This document shows positions 1-7,848 of a DNA stretch of 7,848 bases, piece by piece. The stretch's first letter is position 1. The number at the start of each line of letters is the position of its first letter. Made by a program: the position numbers and the translations under genes. Source of the stretch: a virus. Taxonomy: Duplodnaviria; Heunggongvirae; Uroviricota; Caudoviricetes. Location of the stretch: positions 1-7,848 of IMG/VR virus record IMGVR_UViG_2778261058_000010; one strand, given 5' to 3'. The notes under the pieces were generated by a model, which worked only from the letters and a program-made list of their open reading frames with translations, searched no databases and was not told the DNA's origin.

Positions 1-176
1 TGATGTCATGGCTGGCCTGGCTGCTGATGCTGCTGTATGCCTTTGCGCCCCTCAGTTATCTGTGTGGTCGCCCGTTAGCGGCGAACTGGCTGGCGGTGGG
101 GCTTAATCTGCTGTTCTGCGTGCTGGTGATACGTGCACGCGGGAACGTTTCAAAAATTCTTTCATTCCGGAGGTGA
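1..176 (+). CDS. putative holin or small membrane protein, possibly 5'-partial
   Basis: Reading frame 3 is open from the window edge (first ATG at 3) to TGA at 174-176. Translation shows two hydrophobic stretches (WLAWLLMLLYAFAPL; WLAVGLNLLFCVLVI) and a basic tail RARGNVSKILSFRR. The stop abuts the endolysin start (GTG 173 / ATG 179), which is the usual holin position. Not in the ORF track because it is short or truncated. Confidence 0.45.
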   Translation, partial: MSWLAWLLMLLYAFAPLSYLCGRPLAANWLAVGLNLLFCVLVIRARGNVSKILSFRR

Positions 177-178
177 GT

Positions 179-556
179 ATGTCGGGTAAATTCAGATTCA
201 GTCGTCGCAGTGAAAAAAATCTGGAGGGCGTTAAACCACAGCTGGTTGCTGTAGTTCGCCGTGCGCTGGAGCTGACGGAGGTTGATTTCGGTATTACGGA
301 AGGCCTGCGCAGTAAGTATCGCCAGAAACAGCTGGTCGCGGAAGGGAAAAGTCAGACCATGAACAGCCGCCATCTGACCGGTGATGCGGTGGATGTTGTG
401 GCTTATGTTGGCAGCCAGGTGTCATGGGACTGGCCTCTGTACGAGAAAATCGCGCAGGCATTTAAGCAGGCTGCCGCAGAGCTGGGAACTGCCATCGAAT
501 GGGGTGGGGACTGGAAAACACTGAAAGACGGGCCTCACTTTCAGTTGAAGTGGTGA
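179..556 (+). CDS. endolysin, peptidase M15 family (L-alanyl-D-glutamate peptidase-like)
   Basis: ORF 173..556; ATG at 179 is preceded by GGAGG at 169-173. Translation contains a Zn-ligand-like pattern, H-x6-D (SRHLTGDAVDV) and a later His (DGPHFQ), as I recall for M15/VanY-type phage endolysins. Stop TGA at 554-556. Confidence 0.8.
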   Translation: MSGKFRFSRRSEKNLEGVKPQLVAVVRRALELTEVDFGITEGLRSKYRQKQLVAEGKSQTMNSRHLTGDAVDVVAYVGSQVSWDWPLYEKIAQAFKQAAAELGTAIEWGGDWKTLKDGPHFQLKW

Positions 557-582
557 CAATTACTCTGTTAACGGAGGTGGTT

Positions 583-714
583 TTGAAAAAAGAAGAAGAT
601 AAACAAGAAGCCGCTGCATCAACAAATGCAGCGGCTGGTACCCAGCTTAATTCAGATTGGGTCGAGACGGTAAACTCTGAATTGCTGGCGCTGCTTAATG
701 AAGCAGGCTCTTGA
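583..714 (+). CDS. hypothetical small acidic protein (about 43 aa), uncertain
   Basis: In-frame TTG at 583 sits 5 nt after GGAGG (573-577) inside ORF 499..714. Product is Ala/Glu-rich with no transmembrane segment or lipobox. Its 3' end overlaps the 3' end of the convergent minus-strand gene. Could be non-coding. Confidence 0.25.
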   Translation: MKKEEDKQEAAASTNAAAGTQLNSDWVETVNSELLALLNEAGS

Positions 715-967
715 TTTTCTCCTCAATATCCTTCTGGCCTTCTGCTCGTGATGTATCAATGCCATCGGCAATCTGGTTGAGTGTCAACGCTATGATTTTT
801 TTATTGCGCATTCTTTCATCCAGATGGTTTGCCGTTTTGCGAAATGAATCTGCCAGTTCCGTTTTATCAAGGCCAGCTTGCTCTGCAAGCTTCATTGACA
901 GATGAACAATTGCTACCTGTTGACCGGCAAGAAGGGCGGCAATTAACTCAAGTTGTTCTTTAGTCAT
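695..967 (-). CDS. hypothetical protein (90 aa), phage late-region accessory gene
   Basis: ORF 695..967 on the minus strand. ATG (plus 965-967) is preceded by GGAG with a 5-nt spacer. Product is hydrophilic and helical-looking (MTKEQLELIAALLAGQQ...); I do not recognise a family. Confidence 0.55.
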   Translation of the reverse strand: MTKEQLELIAALLAGQQVAIVHLSMKLAEQAGLDKTELADSFRKTANHLDERMRNKKIIALTLNQIADGIDTSRAEGQKDIEEKIKSLLH

Positions 968-1035
968 AAATTCTCCAGTTACCTTTCATTAAATGCATGG
1001 GGATTTTATCAGTCGGTTAATAAAGGCAGAAGATT

Positions 1036-1224
1036 ATGGTTATGAACAGAAGACACTGGACACACAGAATGCCGCGAACGGCGGCGAAATGGGCACCGGT
1101 AGCGATACTGGTGCCTTTTTTCCTGGTGGGATGCGTCAGCCTGGATAAAGCGCGCCAGCTTTTCGATACAGCTTCTCAGGTCTGCGAAATTGTCGACGGT
1201 GTTCGGCAGTGTCTGCAGAACTGA
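1036..1224 (+). CDS. putative small lipoprotein
   Basis: ORF 1036..1224. Internal Met at 1069 begins a textbook lipoprotein signal: MPRTAAK, hydrophobic core WAPVAILVPFF, lipobox LVGC. The mature part is only about 29 aa and is not proline-rich. Start could be 1036, 1042 or 1069. Confidence 0.45.
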   Translation: MVMNRRHWTHRMPRTAAKWAPVAILVPFFLVGCVSLDKARQLFDTASQVCEIVDGVRQCLQN

Positions 1225-1244
1225 TCGCCTGTAAGAGCAGAATA

Positions 1245-1292
1245 TTTTGCTGAAAAATGAAGGATACGCCAGCGTCCGGAAAGCATGAAATT
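1245..1292. repeat. copy A of a 48-bp imperfect direct repeat (partner at 6420-6467)
   Basis: 1273-1292 (cgtccggaaagcatgaaatt) is identical to 6448-6467. The flanks gccagc and t.tgct.aaaaatga are also shared, with 2 mismatches and 1 indel. Lies in the intergenic region upstream of the 98-aa gene. Confidence 0.7.
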
Positions 1293-1398
1293 CTGTGTTT
1301 GTGGCTACTCAATAAAATAAATTCTTTCTGTCGCCGCGAATACTCAAATGTTGATCAGTGCCCGGTGCGGCGACGGGCTTCGATATCAGGAGACGATG

Positions 1399-1695
1399 AT
1401 GGAAAAAACAGAAAACAAACCGATTGTAATTGGTGCTGATGCTGCTCCGTTTAAGTTTGAGTTGTCTCAACTGGTGGAGATGCGCATCAGTGATGAATGG
1501 GGTGAGGTTAAAGCCCGCGCGCAGTATGCGGATGGCGAAAACCAGTACTTGATCCACTACAAAGCAGCTGATGGTCGCGCCACAACGGAGTGGTTTGGTG
1601 AGTCAATGCTGGAAGCAACAGAAGATGATCGCCATCCGGGCTGTCCGGTATTTGCCGGTATGAAATTACCGGAAGGCGCAGTTGTTACTGAGTAA
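1399..1695 (+). CDS. hypothetical protein (98 aa) upstream of HNH endonuclease
   Basis: ORF 1348..1695. ATG at 1399 is 5 nt after AGGAGA (1388-1393); an alternative ATG is at 1396. Stop TAA at 1693-1695. No recognisable motif. Confidence 0.55.
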   Translation: MEKTENKPIVIGADAAPFKFELSQLVEMRISDEWGEVKARAQYADGENQYLIHYKAADGRATTEWFGESMLEATEDDRHPGCPVFAGMKLPEGAVVTE

Positions 1696-1756
1696 CAGGC
1701 ATTACAGCAGCCCTTCAGTGAGGGGCTGCGATAATGCCGGTATTAAGGAGATTCCA

Positions 1757-2107
1757 ATGCCATCACGAATACCCCGCGCCTGTCGTAAGCGTGGATGTGC
1801 AGGCACAACAACAGACAGTTCGGGTTACTGCGATAAGCATCGCGGTGAAGGCTGGGTGCAGCACCAGCGCGGACTGAGCCGCCACCAGCGTGGCTATGGC
1901 TCAAAATGGACGGTGATTCGTGCCCGTATTCTGAAGCGCGATAAAGGTCTGTGTCAGTTGTGTCTGCGTGTCGGTGTGGTGAGCGAGGCGAAAACCGTCG
2001 ACCACATCATCCCGAAAGCGCATGGCGGAACAGACGCAGACAGCAACCTGCAGAGTCTGTGCTGGCCCTGCCATAAAGCGAAAACAGCGCGCGAACGAAT
2101 CAGGTGA
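1757..2107 (+). CDS. HNH endonuclease, phage packaging-associated
   Basis: ATG at 1757 within ORF 1682..2107, preceded by AAGGAG (1744-1749). Cys pairs (CRKRGC; CWPCH) and an HNH-like core (VDHIIPKAHGG...N) are present. It sits directly upstream of the terminase small and large subunit genes, as in HK97-like cos phages. Confidence 0.85.
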   Translation: MPSRIPRACRKRGCAGTTTDSSGYCDKHRGEGWVQHQRGLSRHQRGYGSKWTVIRARILKRDKGLCQLCLRVGVVSEAKTVDHIIPKAHGGTDADSNLQSLCWPCHKAKTARERIR

Positions 2108-2120
2108 TAATTATTCTCAC

Positions 2121-2181
2121 TTGTGGGGAGGGGCGGGTCAAATCCCTGCAACCCTGGCTGTCCGGGACCGCCCGCCAACCC
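2121..2181. other. candidate cos / packaging-initiation region (GC-rich HNH-terS intergenic segment)
   Basis: The 147-bp HNH-terS intergenic region contains a conspicuous G/C-rich block (ggggaggggcgggtc ... gggaccgcccgccaaccc) with partial dyad symmetry, then a T8 run at 2210-2217. In HNH-associated cos phages, cos lies between HNH and terS. Positional inference only. Confidence 0.25.
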
Positions 2182-2254
2182 TTCTTCGCATCGCCGCAGG
2201 TTCGAAAACTTTTTTTTGGGAATGTGATTAAACGATTGATAGGTAAAACCGATT

Positions 2255-2737
2255 ATGTCAGGACCCCCGAAAACCCCGCCACGCCTGCATTTGATACGAG
2301 GCAACCCCTCAAAGCGCCCCGTTAAAGACTCCAAAAAAACCGCTAAAAAGGACGAAAAAGGTCTCCCTAAAATTCCGCAGCATTTAGGGGCGCAGGGGAA
2401 GTACTGGTTCAGGCGAATGGCGGAAGAGCTGAATGCGGAAGGGATCATTTCTCAGCTTGATGCGCGTGCACTTGAGTTACTGGTGGAAGCCTACACCGAA
2501 TACCGGCATCACTGCGAAACACTCGATGTTGAGGGGTATACCTACCGCACGGAAACGCAGAATGGCGATGTGATGATCAAGGCACATCCGGCTGCGGCGA
2601 TGAAGGCGGATGCCTGGAAGCGGATCCGGGCGATGCTTGCAGAGTTTGGTATGTCACCGGCAAGCCGGGCGAAAGTAAATATCGCCGGACCGGATGATGT
2701 TGATCCGCTGGCAGAGCTTTTAAAAGCGAGAGACTGA
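2255..2737 (+). CDS. terminase small subunit, P27 family
   Basis: ORF 2255..2737 (160 aa). Basic Pro/Lys-rich N-terminus and overall composition match what I recall of P27-family small terminases. Stop TGA overlaps the terL ATG (cTGATGg at 2735-2739). Confidence 0.8.
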   Translation: MSGPPKTPPRLHLIRGNPSKRPVKDSKKTAKKDEKGLPKIPQHLGAQGKYWFRRMAEELNAEGIISQLDARALELLVEAYTEYRHHCETLDVEGYTYRTETQNGDVMIKAHPAAAMKADAWKRIRAMLAEFGMSPASRAKVNIAGPDDVDPLAELLKARD

Positions 2738-3930
2738 TGGCAAAAGTGGCTGACGGGATCCGCTACGCCGAACGTGTTGTTGCAGGAGAAATTGTCGCTG
2801 GCGAATTTGTCCGTCTGGCCTGCCAGCGTTTTCTTGATGATCTGAAGTACGGCGAAGAGCGGGGGATTTATTTCAGTGAACCCCGTGCGCAGCACATCCT
2901 GAATTTCTACAAATTTGTGCCCCATGTAAAAGGGGCGCTGGCAGGTCAGCCCATTGAACTGATGGACTGGCATGTTTTTATCCTCATTAATATTTTTGGT
3001 TTTGTCATTCCGCTGGTGAATGAAGAGACCGGGGAAGTTGTCATGCGCAGCGATGGCAGCGGACGCCCGGTGATGGTGCGCCGGTTCCGGACAGCGTACA
3101 ACGAAGTCGCCCGTAAAAACGCAAAATCAACCCTGTCATCGGGTATCGGTCTGTATATGACGGGGGCAGATGGTGAAGGCGGGGCTGAGGTGTATTCAGC
3201 CGCAACCACGCGTGACCAGGCCAGAATTGTGTTTGAAGACGCCAAAAATATGGTCAGAAAAGCCCGGTCGACACTCGGGCGATTGTTTGATTTCAACAAG
3301 CTGGCGATTTACCAGGAGCAGAGCGCATCAAAATTTGAACCGCTTTCCTCGGATGCAAACAACCTGGACGGTCTGAACATCCACTGCGCCATTATTGATG
3401 AGCTGCATGCACATAAAACCCGCGACGTGTGGGACGTTCTGGAAACGGCAACCGGTGCCCGTCTGCAGTCCCTGTTATTTGGTATCACCACGGCGGGCTT
3501 TAACAAGGAAGGGATTTGTTACGAGCAACGCGATTACGCCATCAAGGTATTGCGAGGCTATAACAGTGACGTGGAGGGCGCGGTAAAAGACGACTCCTAC
3601 TTTGCGATTATTTACACGCTCGATGAGGGAGATGATCCGTTTGATGAAACGGTCTGGCAGAAAGCGAATCCCGGCCTGGGCATCTGTAAACGCTGGGATG
3701 ATCTGCGTCGTCTGGCGAAAAAAGCGAAGGAGCAGGTTTCAGCACGGGTGAATTTTTTCACGAAGAAAGTAACATCACGCCGTAACAACAGTGCGACCTG
3801 TCCTGATTTTTTTAGTAACCAAATGAAAGAAAAAGATTTTTTCTTGTTCGTCGTTTTTGTTTTTTCTGGAAGGTTCTGGCTGTTTTCATCATTTGTGTAT
3901 TGCACTGTGTATTGCAAAAACGGGTTATAA
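2737..3930 (+). CDS. terminase large subunit (Terminase_1-like), C-terminally truncated, probable pseudogene
   Basis: ORF 2737..3930. Deviant Walker A (ARKNAKST), Walker B (IIDELH) and the W.KANPGLG motif are present. After NFFTKK (codon 344, about 3768) the translation becomes low-complexity and Phe-rich (VTSRRNNSATCPDFF...FLFVVFVF) and the DNA becomes AT-rich. The expected nuclease domain, roughly 200 aa, is missing. Confidence 0.75.
   Translation: MAKVADGIRYAERVVAGEIVAGEFVRLACQRFLDDLKYGEERGIYFSEPRAQHILNFYKFVPHVKGALAGQPIELMDWHVFILINIFGFVIPLVNEETGEVVMRSDGSGRPVMVRRFRTAYNEVARKNAKSTLSSGIGLYMTGADGEGGAEVYSAATTRDQARIVFEDAKNMVRKARSTLGRLFDFNKLAIYQEQSASKFEPLSSDANNLDGLNIHCAIIDELHAHKTRDVWDVLETATGARLQSLLFGITTAGFNKEGICYEQRDYAIKVLRGYNSDVEGAVKDDSYFAIIYTLDEGDDPFDETVWQKANPGLGICKRWDDLRRLAKKAKEQVSARVNFFTKKVTSRRNNSATCPDFFSNQMKEKDFFLFVVFVFSGRFWLFSSFVYCTVYCKNGL
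3894..3916. repeat. tandem 11-bp direct repeat upstream of the integrase
   Basis: tgtgtattgca at 3894-3904 and again at 3906-3916, separated by one base; ends 20 bp before the int ATG. Confidence 0.6.
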
Positions 3931-3935
3931 ATCAC

Positions 3936-5144
3936 ATGGCGCTAAACAAACTGAGCGATAAAAAACTTCGTTCCCTGCTTGGGCGCAGGAGTGAGAGGCA
4001 GGAAACCATCGCTGATGGTAACGGGCTTTCGGTACGGGTCAGTAAATACGGATGTGTTAGTTTTGTTTTCTTTTACAGATTGGCGGGAAGGGGAACCGCG
4101 CCCATCTGGCTGACACTTGGAAAATATCCTGATCTGAGTCTCAAATCAGCGAGAGAGATGCGCGATCAGTGTCGAACCTGGCTTGCGGAGGGCAGAGATC
4201 CACGGATTCAGATAAAAATTGAACGGGAAGCCACCTTGCAACCTGTTACCGTTCGTGAGGCACTTGAATACTGGCTTGATAATTATGCAATGGATAAGCG
4301 TAGGGGAGCAGAACATATCAGGCAGTGCTTTGGTAAACATATTTATCCGGTGATTGGTCATGTACCACTTAGTGATTGCTCTATATCTATGTGGATCAAG
4401 TGTTTTGACAAAATAAAAAAAGTAGCACCTGTACAGGCCGGAGCTTTGTTGCGTATATCAAAACAGGCGCTTAAATTTTGTAGGGTAAGAAAATACGCGA
4501 TTAGTCATGAAATTGATGATCTTGAGGTCTGTGATGTGGGAAAAAAGTCTGCGCGAAGAAGCAGGGTTTTAACAGATGATGAAATCAGAGATTTATGGCG
4601 AAGTATTAATACTGATTATGACAATCACGAATTATCATATGAAAACCGAATTATTTTACGTTTCCTGGTAGTTTTTGGTTGTCGACTGTCAGAAGTATTA
4701 CTGTCGTCCTGGGTAGAGTGGGATTTTGATAAGAAATTATGGCGCGTTCCCGCTGATCATAGCAAAAATGGCAGGGAAATAATCAGACCGATTCCTGATG
4801 GCATGTTTAACTGGTTAGTTACGTTAAAAAAAATAACAGGTAACAAAGAAAATGTGATTGGGTTTGATATGCGTCAGTGTACGGCAAGCGTAACTATCGG
4901 TAAGACATGGAAAAGGATGAAACACTCGGAAAAATGGACGGCGCATGATATGCGAAGAGTGTTTGCCACAAAGCTAAGTGATCATGGTTTTGAACATAAT
5001 GTGGTTGAACAGTTGCTTGGGCACACATTAGGCGGTGTTGCCGGGGTTTATAACAGAAGTCAGTATATGGACAGAAAAAAAGAAGCTATGAACTGGTGGT
5101 ACGACTATCTGAATAAGCTAATTAGTGGTGACGGTAATGATTGA
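3936..5144 (+). CDS. tyrosine site-specific integrase, P4-like
   Basis: ATG at 3936 within ORF 3900..5144. N-terminal arm-binding-like region (MALNKLSDKKL...GNGLSVRVSKYG...LTLGKYPDLSLKSAREMRD) and C-terminal catalytic region (HDMRRVFATKL...LLGH...GVYNRSQY) are typical of P4-type integrases. Confidence 0.9.
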   Translation: MALNKLSDKKLRSLLGRRSERQETIADGNGLSVRVSKYGCVSFVFFYRLAGRGTAPIWLTLGKYPDLSLKSAREMRDQCRTWLAEGRDPRIQIKIEREATLQPVTVREALEYWLDNYAMDKRRGAEHIRQCFGKHIYPVIGHVPLSDCSISMWIKCFDKIKKVAPVQAGALLRISKQALKFCRVRKYAISHEIDDLEVCDVGKKSARRSRVLTDDEIRDLWRSINTDYDNHELSYENRIILRFLVVFGCRLSEVLLSSWVEWDFDKKLWRVPADHSKNGREIIRPIPDGMFNWLVTLKKITGNKENVIGFDMRQCTASVTIGKTWKRMKHSEKWTAHDMRRVFATKLSDHGFEHNVVEQLLGHTLGGVAGVYNRSQYMDRKKEAMNWWYDYLNKLISGDGND

Positions 5145-5358
5145 AATAGTTACGCGTGAAGAACTTGAAAATGATAAAACAATCGACAGGATGATTAAGG
5201 AAGATGAATGTGCATGGTTAACAGCTCTTGGCCGGAGACACAGAGCATTACTTGAAAAGGAAGGAAAATTTCCACGGAAAATATGTATTGGCCCACAAAC
5301 AAAAGTCTGGCGCTTATCTGAGGTGCTGGAATGGGTAAAGGGTGAATGGAAACCCTGA
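5137..5358 (+). CDS. AlpA-family transcriptional regulator (helix-turn-helix)
   Basis: ATG at 5137 overlaps the int stop (ATGATTGA, 5137-5144), implying translational coupling. The 73-aa product carries the AlpA-like pattern (...LTALGRRHRALLEKEGKFP...W.LSEVLEWV). Confidence 0.8.
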   Translation: MIEIVTREELENDKTIDRMIKEDECAWLTALGRRHRALLEKEGKFPRKICIGPQTKVWRLSEVLEWVKGEWKP

Positions 5359-5382
5359 ACTAAATTAAATGAGATATAATCA

Positions 5383-5407
5383 ACCCGTCTTTTGGCGGGT
5401 TTTTTTA
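5383..5407 (+). terminator. weak intrinsic terminator-like hairpin between the two AlpA-like genes
   Basis: Short stem acccg / cgggt (5383-5400) followed by T7 at 5401-5407. The stem is only about 5 bp. Confidence 0.3.
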
Positions 5408-5421
5408 TAGGTGATATTTTT

Positions 5422-5700
5422 ATGCAAAAATTTATTTATCCTACACCCGAAGAACGCATTCAGATTCTGAAAGAACATGGCGAACCGTATGATCGCCGTA
5501 TACGCGAACATGAGTGTGCCAATCGTACCGGGCTTTCAAGAAGCAGACGTTGGGTACTTGAACAGGAGGGAGCATTTCCTGCTCGTGCTCATTTAGGGAA
5601 AGTGTCTGTTTCCTGGTTGCTCTCTGATGTGCTCTGGTGGGTTATGCATCCGCCAGGAGTAAAGGAAGTAAACAGCCCATACAAAAACGCCAATAAGTAA
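5422..5700 (+). CDS. AlpA-like helix-turn-helix regulator, second copy
   Basis: ATG at 5422 within ORF 5392..5700; AGGTGA at 5409-5414 with a 7-nt spacer. Contains an AlpA-like core (ECANRTGLSRSRRWVLEQEGAFP...VSVSWLLSDVLWW). Confidence 0.7.
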   Translation: MQKFIYPTPEERIQILKEHGEPYDRRIREHECANRTGLSRSRRWVLEQEGAFPARAHLGKVSVSWLLSDVLWWVMHPPGVKEVNSPYKNANK

Positions 5701-5709
5701 TTACCGACA

Positions 5710-5739
5710 CCCCCGCACCACGCAATGCGGGGTTTTTTG
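5710..5739 (+). terminator. Rho-independent terminator
   Basis: GC stem ccccgca (5711-5717) / tgcgggg (5726-5732) followed by T6 at 5733-5738, just after the second AlpA-like stop. Confidence 0.6.
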
Positions 5740-5757
5740 TATGTGAGGTAGAAAGTG

Positions 5758-6351
5758 ATGAATAAAAATATTGCCGCGACGGGCAAGGGTGACGCACGTC
5801 ATGTGAAAAAATTCTGTGATATTCGTGATCTGGTCGTTCTGCGCTTTGATAGTGTGAACGTTCGCGTGGTGTATCTGAACGGCGATCCGTGGTTTGTTGG
5901 CGCTGATGTGTGTGCGGCGCTGGAAATTAGCAACGTTACCGATGCTGTTTCAGTTCTGGATAGCGATGAGGTAATGACCCTAGCTTTAACCGAGGGTCAT
6001 TCAGGTAAGCGTGGTGGTGCCAGAAGTTGGAATGTTGTATCAGAATCAGGTTTTTACAAGTTGATCGCCAGAAGTCGCAAAGCTGTTAATCCTGGCACGT
6101 TCGCCCATCGTTTCAGTAATTGGGTATTCAGAAATGTGATACCGGGTATCAGAAAAACGGGGGCTTATGGTATCCCGTGGGGCGCATTACAGGATTTTTC
6201 CCGCCGCAAAGAGCAATACCAGATAAGTGCCAGTGAGAAGGGGAGGGCGCTACAGGCATGTAAGCGCAAAAAGCGTGAACTGGAGGAAGAAGAAAAAAGG
6301 CTGATACGTGAATATCAGCCTGAGTTTTACTTTGGTGAGCGTATTCAGTAA
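5758..6351 (+). CDS. Bro-N domain protein, putative antirepressor
   Basis: ORF 5755..6351 (GTG 5755 / ATG 5758; GAGG at 5745-5748). N-terminal segment VVYLNGDPWFVGADVCAALEISN is Bro-N-like; the C-terminus is basic/acidic and coiled-coil-like. Confidence 0.75.
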   Translation: MNKNIAATGKGDARHVKKFCDIRDLVVLRFDSVNVRVVYLNGDPWFVGADVCAALEISNVTDAVSVLDSDEVMTLALTEGHSGKRGGARSWNVVSESGFYKLIARSRKAVNPGTFAHRFSNWVFRNVIPGIRKTGAYGIPWGALQDFSRRKEQYQISASEKGRALQACKRKKRELEEEEKRLIREYQPEFYFGERIQ

Positions 6352-6419
6352 CCGCGTACGGTGCTGATTATACGGTACATCGTGTTAACCGGGAAGTTAC
6401 CCACCAGCAAGGCAAAATC

Positions 6420-6467
6420 TTCTGCTAAAAAATGACATATGGCCAGCCGTCCGGAAAGCATGAAATT
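6420..6467. repeat. copy B of the 48-bp imperfect direct repeat (partner at 1245-1292)
   Basis: See copy A. The 20-bp exact core is at 6448-6467. Lies in the convergent intergenic region after the Bro-N gene. Confidence 0.7.
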
Positions 6468-6509
6468 TTACAAAAATGGAAAATGAAGATTTTTATTGTG
6501 CTGGTGGGT

Positions 6510-6540
6510 AAAAACAAAAAGCGCCCCGTTGCCGGAGCGC
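6510..6540 (-). terminator. Rho-independent terminator (minus strand)
   Basis: On the minus strand: stem gcgctccg / cggggcgc (one G-U pair) with a GCAA tetraloop (plus 6521-6540), followed by TTTTTGTTTTT (plus 6510-6520). Confidence 0.6.
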
Positions 6541-6634
6541 TCTTGCGAACAATTAACCTACTGCGCAAAAAATGAATCTGTGCGGGGGGATTATATCAAC
6601 CGTGGTCGAAATGACCATAGTTGCAGGATAACAG

Positions 6635-6664
6635 GCAAAACAAAGGCCACCCGCTACGGTGGCC
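6635..6664 (-). terminator. Rho-independent terminator (minus strand)
   Basis: On the minus strand: stem ggccacc / ggtggcc (plus 6645-6664) followed by TTTGTTTTG (plus 6635-6643). About 130 nt downstream of the 50-aa gene stop. Confidence 0.55.
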
Positions 6665-6794
6665 CCTTGACACAAGCTACACGTTATCCCCAACGCATGA
6701 GCATAGCCAACAATGCCACATTTACGGCTGGTGGGCAAATCCTGAGCTGTTCTGTAATTACAGGAACTACGGCATTGTCGCGGTTAGGTTATGC

Positions 6795-6947
6795 TCAACT
6801 TTTTTTCAACTCTATATCGCAAGCACGCCGTAATATATCGCCTTCATTGCTTCCGCAAAGATTCTTTTTCTCGAAGCATGATTTTAAGATAAAGGCGGCG
6901 ACAATTAGAACAATCGCACAGAGTGCACAATTTTTAAGTTTTGGCAT
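6795..6947 (-). CDS. small membrane peptide (50 aa), single transmembrane segment, Cys-rich; not in ORF track
   Basis: Hand-translated from the minus strand: ATG (plus 6945-6947) is 6 nt after AGGAG (plus 6954-6958). Product MPKLKNCALCAIVLIVAAFILKSCFEKKNLCGSNEGDILRRACDIELKKS; stop TGA (plus 6795-6797). Second gene of the minus-strand pair. Confidence 0.4.
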   Translation of the reverse strand: MPKLKNCALCAIVLIVAAFILKSCFEKKNLCGSNEGDILRRACDIELKKS

Positions 6948-7001
6948 CTTTTACTCCTATGGTTGCCGCCGTGATTCCTCACACCACGGCGCTGATAGTA
7001 A

Positions 7002-7181
7002 TTATTCTGATTCTTTGGCCTTGCGGCGCTGGCGGCGTTTGATCTCGCCACGCATGGCTGTAACGATAAACTGCGCGTCTGTTTCGTTTTCCTCTTTGAC
7101 AAAATTCATTTCGCTTAAAACTTCTAGAGGGATTCTAGCCGTTTTTTGTTGTGATTTGTTGTTGGTTGTACCCGTTGGCAT
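7002..7181 (-). CDS. small putative DNA-binding protein (59 aa), possibly ribbon-helix-helix-like
   Basis: Internal ATG of ORF 7002..7349 (plus 7179-7181) is preceded by a perfect AAGGAGG (plus 7189-7195) with a 6-nt spacer. Product MPTGTTNNKSQQKTARIPLEVLSEMNFVKEENETDAQFIVTAMRGEIKRRQRRKAKESE. The strand/helix-like pattern and basic tail suggest a small regulator; fold assignment is inference. Confidence 0.5.
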   Translation of the reverse strand: MPTGTTNNKSQQKTARIPLEVLSEMNFVKEENETDAQFIVTAMRGEIKRRQRRKAKESE

Positions 7182-7247
7182 TACTGGCCTCCTTACTGTT
7201 AGGTGGCGTTCAGTATACGTAGAAAAAAAAATAAAAAAAGGCTTGAA

Positions 7248-7293
7248 GTGCAAGTCACCTAAAAGTAGCATAACCCTCAAAGGTGACTTGCAC
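7248..7293 (+). promoter_or_regulatory. 13-bp perfect inverted repeat with 20-nt loop; candidate operator or structured leader RNA
   Basis: gtgcaagtcacct (7248-7260) is the exact reverse complement of aggtgacttgcac (7281-7293). Preceded by A9-T-A7 (7222-7238) and followed by a second imperfect hairpin (7305-7337). Sits between the divergent minus-strand pair and the Icd-like gene. Confidence 0.4.
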
Positions 7294-7374
7294 CTTAAAG
7301 ACAAAGCCCCGCAAGTGTCGTTACCACTCGCAGGGCTTCTAACCACCAACGATAACGAGAGTATCGAGGTAGCT

Positions 7375-7581
7375 ATGAGAAATCATACCACACACCCGCA
7401 AGGGCGGGACTCGCACAACCTGAATAAATATATCTGGCGTTTTATCGCTCTGAGCACGGCACAACCGCGCGTGATTACCATTGAGGCCACCAGCGAACAG
7501 GAAGCACGCCAGCAATCTCCTGATGGCTGTGTGATGGTATTCGCCGCCCGTATTCGCCAGGGGGTGCACCATGTGCAATAA
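7375..7581 (+). CDS. Icd-like (host cell division inhibitor-like) small protein
   Basis: ATG at 7375 inside the spurious long ORF 6496..7581; GAGG at 7366-7369 with a 5-nt spacer. The 68-aa product (MRNHTTHPQGR...VITIEATSEQEARQQSPDGCVMVFAARIRQ) resembles Icd-like proteins of P4-like elements as I remember them. Confidence 0.5.
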   Translation: MRNHTTHPQGRDSHNLNKYIWRFIALSTAQPRVITIEATSEQEARQQSPDGCVMVFAARIRQGVHHVQ

Positions 7582-7831
7582 CCCACGTCCGGACGCAGCA
7601 GCCGCCGCGCTCACTACGCTGATGCACGCGCTGATTGATATTTCATGCACGGCAGCAAACGTAGAAAAACACATTGCCAGAGAGACGGAATATGCTGGGG
7701 CTTTAGTTCCTCATTCACTGGCTGTTATGCAACTTAGTGCTGATATGGCACTGAATGAGGCCAAAGCCATCCTGATTGCTGATTGTGAAAATGGGGGGGG
7801 GTTATGCGTGATGATCGTTTTAATGCCCTGA
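7571..7831 (+). CDS. hypothetical protein (86 aa); reading frame depends on the G9 tract
   Basis: ATG at 7571 overlaps the Icd-like stop (ATGTGCAATAA). The frame ends shortly after the G9 run at 7793-7801. One extra G would fuse it to the downstream ORF. Confidence 0.3.
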   Translation: MCNNPRPDAAAAALTTLMHALIDISCTAANVEKHIARETEYAGALVPHSLAVMQLSADMALNEAKAILIADCENGGGLCVMIVLMP

Positions 7832-7848
7832 AACAGGAATTTGATGGC
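7804..7848 (+). CDS. hypothetical protein, 3'-partial (runs off the window)
   Basis: ATG at 7804 immediately after the G9 tract, which could serve as a Shine-Dalgarno sequence. Translation MRDDRFNALKQEFDG... is open to the window end. Confidence 0.3.
   Translation, partial: MRDDRFNALKQEFDG

Follow-up and report, generated by a model that had tools for sequence, protein, structure and literature searches.

We have analysed a stretch of 7,848 nucleotides (nt) from a viral (Caudoviricetes) record, IMGVR_UViG_2778261058_000010, positions 1 to 7,848 (hereafter the window), and found that two adjacent, co-oriented genes on its minus strand, at 7181-6795, are followed by a terminator and lie antisense inside a long plus-strand frame that ends in an Icd-like domain. 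The upstream gene belongs to a known family, YlcI/YnfO, while the downstream gene belongs to a small family that is deposited only as 'hypothetical protein'. The element that carries them is a phage-inducible chromosomal island (PICI) seated in the large-terminase gene of a prophage. We propose that the interval is a leftward two-gene regulator operon of the island, with a co-expressed membrane effector, and we put the probability of the full proposal at about 0.5.

Control of Gram-negative PICIs is said to run mainly via AlpA, with P4-like immunity RNAs in some cases. Many islands have a leftward protein regulator gene in their control region, which would be an unstudied candidate for satellite silencing. 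The 50-residue peptide encoded behind it shows how annotation misses short conserved membrane-protein genes, and the plus-strand frame, kept open without amino-acid constraint, suggests that the act of translation, not its product, may be under selection. Term searches of PMC10111431 and the other satellite papers checked gave no description of such a pair, nor of a conserved open frame in which it is nested in antisense.

The features of the interval and its immediate surroundings are listed below.

7181-7002, minus strand: ylcI/ynfO-family gene (gene 1), 59 amino acids, with a predicted ribbon-helix-helix (RHH)-like core and a basic C-terminal tail
7001-6948, minus strand: intercistronic spacer of 54 nt, holding a 7-bp hairpin (6991-6967) and the Shine-Dalgarno sequence of the peptide gene (6958-6954)
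6947-6795, minus strand: gene for a predicted 50-residue membrane peptide (gene 2), recognised by homologues, synteny, the ratio of nonsynonymous to synonymous substitution rates (dN/dS), simulation of reading-frame preservation and a deletion allele
6632-6794, minus strand: conserved 3' region, ending in terminator T1
6667-6642 plus T-run, minus strand: terminator T1 from the terminator scan, 128 nt past the peptide stop
6617-6590, minus strand: promoter-like site, TGGTCA-16-TATAAT with TG, 10/12 matches
6544-6517 plus T-run, minus strand: terminator T2 from the terminator scan, 251 nt past the peptide stop
6487-7581, plus strand: stop-free frame (listed open reading frame 6496-7581, 361 amino acids), covering the whole pair in antisense
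7182-7374: divergent control region between ylcI and the Icd-like gene
7375-7581, plus strand: Icd-like gene, short form

Conservation of the pair

The two minus-strand reading frames of 59 and 50 codons, each with its Shine-Dalgarno sequence, had been proposed in an initial annotation made from the DNA alone, and both are borne out by our comparison. In all 16 loci read, the peptide gene stands directly behind a small co-oriented RHH-like gene, and the pair always lies between a Bro, AntA or helix-turn-helix (HTH) gene and the replication operon, so that the pair is conserved across related islands. The upstream partner is either a YlcI/YnfO member or a relative of 57-59 residues with an RHH-like sequence pattern and a weak YlcI match (E 3.6e-4 for the copy in locus L016). 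The two genes are separated by 3 nt in six non-E. coli loci, by 27 nt in one locus and by 36-54 nt in E. coli. In the six, the Shine-Dalgarno sequence of the peptide gene falls within the final codons of its upstream neighbour. In the window the gap is 54 nt, not the 55 bp first reported. Genes of the ylcI type without the peptide are far commoner than those with it, examples being L003 and Escherichia phage vB_KppS-Ant.

The upstream gene and its control region

The product of gene 1 matches the YlcI/YnfO profile (NF041551) over its full 42 positions with 62.5 bits against a cut-off of 30 (E 2.7e-17), and it also matches phrog_949 of PHROGs. Two features link it to the family members of K-12 prophages, an NNKSQ...AR.P motif at the N-terminus and the QFIVTA...GEIKRRQR helix. 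Members are widespread among the Enterobacterales, in 114 clusters, and the literature found under the family names describes no function for the family. What distinguishes gene 1 from the family at large is its place in the control region of a satellite, divergent from the Icd-like gene and sometimes with the peptide gene behind it. Its Shine-Dalgarno sequence, AAGGAGG at 7194-7188, lies 6 nt 5' of the ATG, and differences between ylcI alleles fall mainly at third codon positions, which is a coding pattern.

Gene 1 is likely, but not proven, to encode an RHH-like DNA-binding regulator. Its AlphaFold2 model, computed from a 42-sequence alignment, has a mean confidence score (pLDDT) of 82 with helices at residues 12-16, 19-28 and 35-58, and the nearest likeness of this predicted structure is, weakly, to RHH proteins. 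Foldseek returned no PDB match, and sequence and profile searches of the PDB gave nothing significant. Pfam gave only the sub-threshold matches PSK_trans_fac (0.0094) and CB_ParB_C (0.011), both of which we take to be RHH-type families. Among the nearest known systems are RHH regulators and antitoxins such as Arc and Mnt of P22, CopG, ParD and the N-domain of NikR. The basic tail noted earlier is present as RRQRRKAKESE; of the RHH pattern suggested with it, the YlcI/YnfO membership and a weak RHH-like predicted structure speak in its favour, but no profile match rises above threshold.

The region matching ylcI was found in 412 of 5,426 complete E. coli genomes. When the alleles of L001, L002, L004-L008 and L010 are compared with 7002-7181 of the window, they are seen to be mosaic: the N-terminal two-thirds differ strongly between islands, and a block that runs from the C-terminal RRQRRKAKE tail through the spacer to the peptide gene is common to them. 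The exact allele combination of the window occurs in no complete E. coli genome and is present in the viral contig L009. A 101-residue form of ylcI is found in L002 and L005, and L005 has two ylcI genes.

In the divergent control region of the window there is an inverted repeat with 18-nt arms (7243-7260 and 7281-7298), which we regard as a candidate operator. Of the 9 regulator alleles examined, 8 (the window and seven of the eight others) have inverted repeats upstream that differ in sequence, and perfect palindromes of 11-12 nt are found upstream of the regulator in L014, L016 and L021. Repeats that differ in this way are what allele-specific operators would look like. Between the start of the Icd-like gene and the candidate operator, there is a 15-bp hairpin on the minus strand (7339-7297) that is followed by UUUGUCUUU and has a fold energy of -27 kcal/mol (z -4.55); L001 has it too. 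This hairpin resembles a terminator of transcripts antisense to the replication operon, and is absent from the output of the terminator scan.

The downstream gene encodes a conserved short peptide

The comparative evidence argues that gene 2 is a genuine protein gene. An exhaustive profile search together with a second homologue search found 11 clusters of homologues, 47-53 residues long (E 1e-10 to 1e-23), in E. coli, Klebsiella, Enterobacter/Cronobacter, Citrobacter and Pectobacterium. M1, S23, C24, C31, D37, R40, C43 and K49 are invariant in the 11-member alignment. The peptide has a basic N-terminus, a hydrophobic core, a K/R-S-C junction and a polar tail with C24, C31, D37, R40 and C43; the core is 13-17 residues long in 13 of 14 members. 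These features are consistent with the single-helix membrane peptide with a Cys-containing tail that had been predicted for this gene. AlphaFold2 places helices at residues 3-26 and 38-49, joined by a loop, with modest confidence (pLDDT 67). The Shine-Dalgarno sequence, AGGAG at 6958-6954, lies 6 nt 5' of the ATG and is conserved.

Across genera, dN/dS is 0.14-0.45 with an excess of third-position changes, which indicates purifying selection. Within E. coli, five distinct alleles keep the peptide frame, one of them with an in-frame 3-nt deletion. When the observed substitutions of three allele lineages were re-placed at random, the 50-codon frame stayed intact in 43%, 8% and 28% of trials, and in 20%, 1% and 14% when all three cysteines had to be kept as well. 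Close E. coli alleles behave differently: most comparisons give a dN/dS of about 1 or above, with no third-position excess, and the hydrophobic half is hypervariable, with divergence of up to 36% compared with 4-13% in the flanking non-coding DNA. The high ratio among close alleles fits either diversifying selection or relaxed constraint, and is a hint of an arms-race function. Variants with stop-loss or frameshift changes of the last residues persist in several isolates.

A DNA search located the peptide reading frame in 18 of 5,426 complete E. coli genomes. The initial annotation called the peptide unannotated, and this holds for RefSeq, which omits it in 17 of the 18 carriers and has it as an 87-residue stop-loss form in the remaining one, but not for GenBank, where the exact peptide is deposited as 'hypothetical protein' (e.g. 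EQR39491.1; 75 contigs). A scan of one genome per species gave no confirmed relative, and tblastn of the peptide against phage records gave chance matches only (E at least 2).

Spacer and downstream signals

The terminator scan of the region found 4 sites, against 1.6 expected. The two terminators proposed earlier behind the pair were both recovered on the minus strand, but only T1 is readily assigned to the operon; T2 may close a separate short transcript because its own promoter-like site (6617-6590) precedes it. The stem of T1 occurs in four versions with compensatory changes, GGCCACC/GGTGGCC, GGCGACC/GGTCGCC, GGCGGCC/GGCCGCC and GGCAGCT/AGCTGCC, and the divergence of the 3' region is not above that of the peptide reading frame in 4 of the 6 alleles compared. 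The promoter-like site lies between T1 and T2, and T2 follows it by about 45 nt. The segment 6617-6507 on the minus strand may thus encode a candidate RNA of about 70 nt, possibly outside the operon; it has a fold energy of -26.5 kcal/mol (z -2.65), and is kept in E. coli loci only, being absent from L010 and from the non-E. coli loci. Rfam has no family for it beyond a match at chance level.

The hairpin in the spacer was considered as a terminator and rejected: a T-run is lacking, the z-score of the fold is only -0.7 and a single pair covaries. Over 6 alleles, 95% of its cells are paired and one GC-to-AU double change, the single covarying pair, gives it weak support.

After the peptide stop and 30-60 nt before T1, there is a TTGNCC-17 nt-NATNNT motif on the minus strand (6738-6710), kept across genera at equivalent positions in L010, L016, L019 and L021. 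Its role may be that of a binding site for a protein, or of an internal promoter from which a very short RNA starts.

The pair lies antisense in a conserved stop-free frame

Between 6487 and 7581, the plus-strand frame that covers the pair has no stop codon, compared with 10-27 in each of the other five frames. We compared 15 loci, drawn from the window and members of L001-L021 and L023, and the frame is stop-free in all of them over 837-1959 nt; by composition alone, the probability of such openness is 1e-6 to 1e-15 per locus. Its C-terminal end is an Icd-like domain in every compared locus (NF033153; in the window residues 312-355, E 7e-19). Where no minus-strand gene lies opposite, substitutions are spread evenly over the three codon positions of the plus frame, so that it is the openness of the frame and not its amino-acid sequence that appears to be conserved. 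No family match was found outside the Icd-like or Ash domains. On these two grounds, an ordinary protein gene in the plus frame was rejected.

The initial annotation had held that a clear plus-strand gene over the same interval would speak against the pair. The stop-free frame is formally such a reading frame, but the minus-strand genes stand regardless, because ylcI has a third-position coding pattern and the plus frame has none. Since the frame lies antisense to the pair, pipelines call conflicting genes at this locus. In LR881103.1 (Escherichia phage vB_KppS-Ant, L023), for example, the long frame is annotated as a 324-residue gene at 2682-3656, and the 67-residue ylcI-like reading frame antisense to it (3289-3086) is omitted. 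This 16.5-kb record is described as an 'induced prophage' and resembles a capsid-forming PICI.

The nearest parallel to this arrangement is the eta/kil locus of P4. PMC10111431, which draws on Forti et al. (1999), describes eta and kil of P4 as nested genes in one frame; the CI immunity RNA lies within eta, whose translation guards against premature termination. In both systems, a long frame lies 3' of alpA or Bro genes and ends in an Icd-like (Kil) domain. P4 eta (214 residues) overlaps the end of its alpA homologue and carries the same C-terminal domain (E 1.4e-20); in six related non-E. coli loci the start codon of the frame, with a Shine-Dalgarno sequence, likewise overlaps or abuts the stop of the upstream gene (-14 to +11 nt), and in vB_KppS-Ant the start of the frame is coupled to the upstream gene. 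The link between the window frame and P4 eta comes from the NF033153 domain common to both and not from direct comparison, as BLASTP between the two was not significant (E 0.74). There are also clear differences. P4 has a same-strand RNA repressor inside eta, whereas here an opposite-strand protein-coding operon lies inside the frame; the window frame, unlike eta, is not contiguous with the gene before it, here Bro-N. Rfam gave one chance-level match over the whole window and no C4/IsrK-type immunity RNA at E <= 1, nor was the CI RNA/seqA arrangement of P4 found there. As the Kil-type (Icd-like) domain of the locus is on the other strand, at 7375-7581, the kil-like role once suggested for the pair is not supported.

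Proposed role of the operon

We propose that YlcI would fold as an RHH dimer whose binding sites would be the allele-specific inverted repeats that separate the ylcI promoter from the Icd-like gene. It would be the protein regulator or immunity factor of the island, in the role that the CI RNA inside eta has in P4; YlcI may stand in for the RNA repressor, as a search of the window with Rfam returned no RNA of this kind. Read-through coming rightward from the int/alpA/bro side would be opposed by leftward transcription. Once the island is induced, translation of the plus frame would enable rightward transcription to reach the replication genes, in the way described for eta of P4. A quiescent island would produce the peptide together with the regulator, and the peptide would insert into the inner membrane with its N-terminus inside and its C-terminus outside, exposing an oxidised periplasmic tail. 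As an accessory membrane effector, it would most likely act in exclusion of, or defence against, incoming phage, and less likely as a membrane toxin. We prefer exclusion or defence because the peptide would be made in a silent island, is dispensable and varies fast among close alleles.

Several observations weigh against this proposal. Basic residues flank the hydrophobic core of the peptide on both sides, so that the proposed topology is tentative. The dN/dS near or above 1 in close alleles could reflect relaxed constraint and not selection. The peptide is rare: among the 412 complete E. coli genomes with a match to the ylcI region, 18 carry it, and it is therefore dispensable for the role of the regulator. 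It has no match in PADLOC, PHROGs or Pfam. No sigma-70-like promoter passed in the scan of 7182-7377. In the clade of the window the frame opens 136 nt past the Bro-N stop with no convincing Shine-Dalgarno sequence, and the plus frame is only putatively translated there.

A more far-reaching version of the proposal would have the operon as a protein immunity cassette that replaces the CI RNA of P4, set antisense in a translated eta-like frame and forming a bistable switch, with the peptide as a new phage-exclusion or abortive factor under diversifying selection. We consider this version rather unlikely. If it were true, both strands of about 1 kb of DNA would be in use, but never together: reading would go leftward in the quiescent and rightward in the induced island.

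Alternative explanations

The absence of a clear family motif in the peptide, remarked on from the start, agrees with the Pfam check, and NCBIfam also gave nothing significant. The initial annotation compared the peptide with Hok/Gef toxins and phage Kil peptides, and the likeness to the former is apparent in its size of about 50 residues, basic N-terminus, single hydrophobic helix and polar Cys-containing tail; it differs from them in being placed behind a protein regulator. Membership does not hold up: the Hok_Gef profile of Pfam has no match at E <= 10 in 8 members, and the Hok/Gef motif occurs in none of 14. We reject the peptide as a member of Hok/Gef, and its membership of any known Kil or lysis family is not supported. 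Neither a mok-like overlapping frame nor a Sok-like antisense RNA was identified, Rfam giving no such RNA in the window and no search having been aimed at either. A toxin-antitoxin-like module for addiction or abortive infection is a rival reading: the peptide would depolarise the membrane, and the RHH protein would hold it in check by binding it or through autorepression, with release upon loss of the island or attack by phage. The layout is that of a type II system, namely a tight two-gene operon with the RHH regulator first and a small gene second, 3-nt spacing in some loci and palindromes upstream, and the peptide has the size and layout of Hok/Gef-type toxins. Yet no toxin family was matched in Pfam, NCBIfam, PADLOC or PHROGs, and the 59-residue regulator has only an 11-residue basic tail beyond its RHH core, which leaves little for toxin binding. 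If the conserved part of the peptide is periplasmic, it would be out of reach of a cytoplasmic protein. Most islands have ylcI without the peptide, which would be unusual for an antitoxin, and the persistence of the stop-loss and frameshift variants of the last residues also speaks against it. We regard such a module as doubtful.

The invariant cysteine could instead point to a lipoprotein, cleaved and lipidated at Cys24. Its mature part, 26 residues with a disulfide bond, would cover a receptor in the outer membrane and so cause exclusion, much like Cor or T5 Llp. Cys24 comes right after the core, which in 13 of 14 members measures 13-17 residues, as is usual for signal peptides, and three cysteines would suit one lipidated residue and one disulfide. 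One allele, P0003 (LLISC), does have a canonical lipobox, and two of 8 members have a weak match to the colicin lysis lipoproteins (PF02402; best E 0.15), short of membership. However, 13 of 14 members fail all three lipobox patterns: 12 carry K or R two residues before the cysteine and one has T at -1. The AlphaFold2 helix runs on through Cys24, and neither PHROGs nor Pfam shows any likeness of the peptide to Cor, Llp or further known lipoproteins of exclusion. A lipoprotein of this kind is therefore, in our judgement, unlikely. It is far more improbable that only the plus-strand eta/kil-like frame is functional and that the 50-residue reading frame is a by-product of antisense sequence. The stop-free frame in every locus, the annotation of the long frame in place of the ylcI-like gene in vB_KppS-Ant, and the lack of excess third-position changes among close peptide alleles would all suit such a view. 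Against it, the peptide shows purifying selection and third-position excess in its own frame across genera, its Shine-Dalgarno sequence, start codon, cysteines and hydrophobic core are all conserved, and the plus frame has neither constraint at the amino-acid level nor matches beyond the Icd-like and Ash domains.

Island setting

The remaining features of the window are as follows.

Left part of the window: prophage lysis, HNH and terminase region
2737-3930: large-terminase reading frame, truncated
3900-5144: integrase
5125-5358: AlpA-like gene, one of two AlpA/HTH-type genes
5755-6351: Bro-N gene

The minus-strand pair is placed between the Bro-N gene and the Icd-like and replication genes. 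Integration, Bro and replication zones follow one another in this order inside a late gene of a prophage, and this gene order identifies the element as a helper-embedded PICI, of the capsid-forming type, and not, as was first thought, a P4-like island. Locus L001 of E. coli is nearly identical and shares the insertion in a terminase gene; it continues with DUF4222, a DUF927 primase, SSB, ProQ/FinO and a major capsid protein; the capsid-forming type is assigned because of this last gene. The helper-embedded layout of Integration-Bro-Replication-Late given by Tommasini et al. (2023; PMC10111431) matches the window and L001, as do the order of integrase, AlpA, Bro-N, Icd-like and replication genes and the insertion inside a prophage large-terminase gene. 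The window differs in its leftward ylcI-peptide operon and antisense nesting, for which term searches of that paper returned no description.

The terminase reading frame continues into island sequence and stops at 3930, overlapping the start of the listed integrase reading frame. A 56-nt direct repeat, 77% identical, occurs in the prophage just after the lysis genes (1237-1292) and in the island between terminator T2 and the Bro-N stop (6412-6467). Both copies start similar short minus-strand reading frames (MLSGRW... and MLSGRL...), and the repeat may be a site, common to both, that serves regulation or packaging. A 62-residue reading frame on the plus strand (1036-1224), in the lysis region of the prophage, has the canonical lipobox FFLVGC and is probably an Rz1-type outer-membrane spanin; its lipobox contrasts with the non-canonical cysteine junction of the 50-residue peptide.

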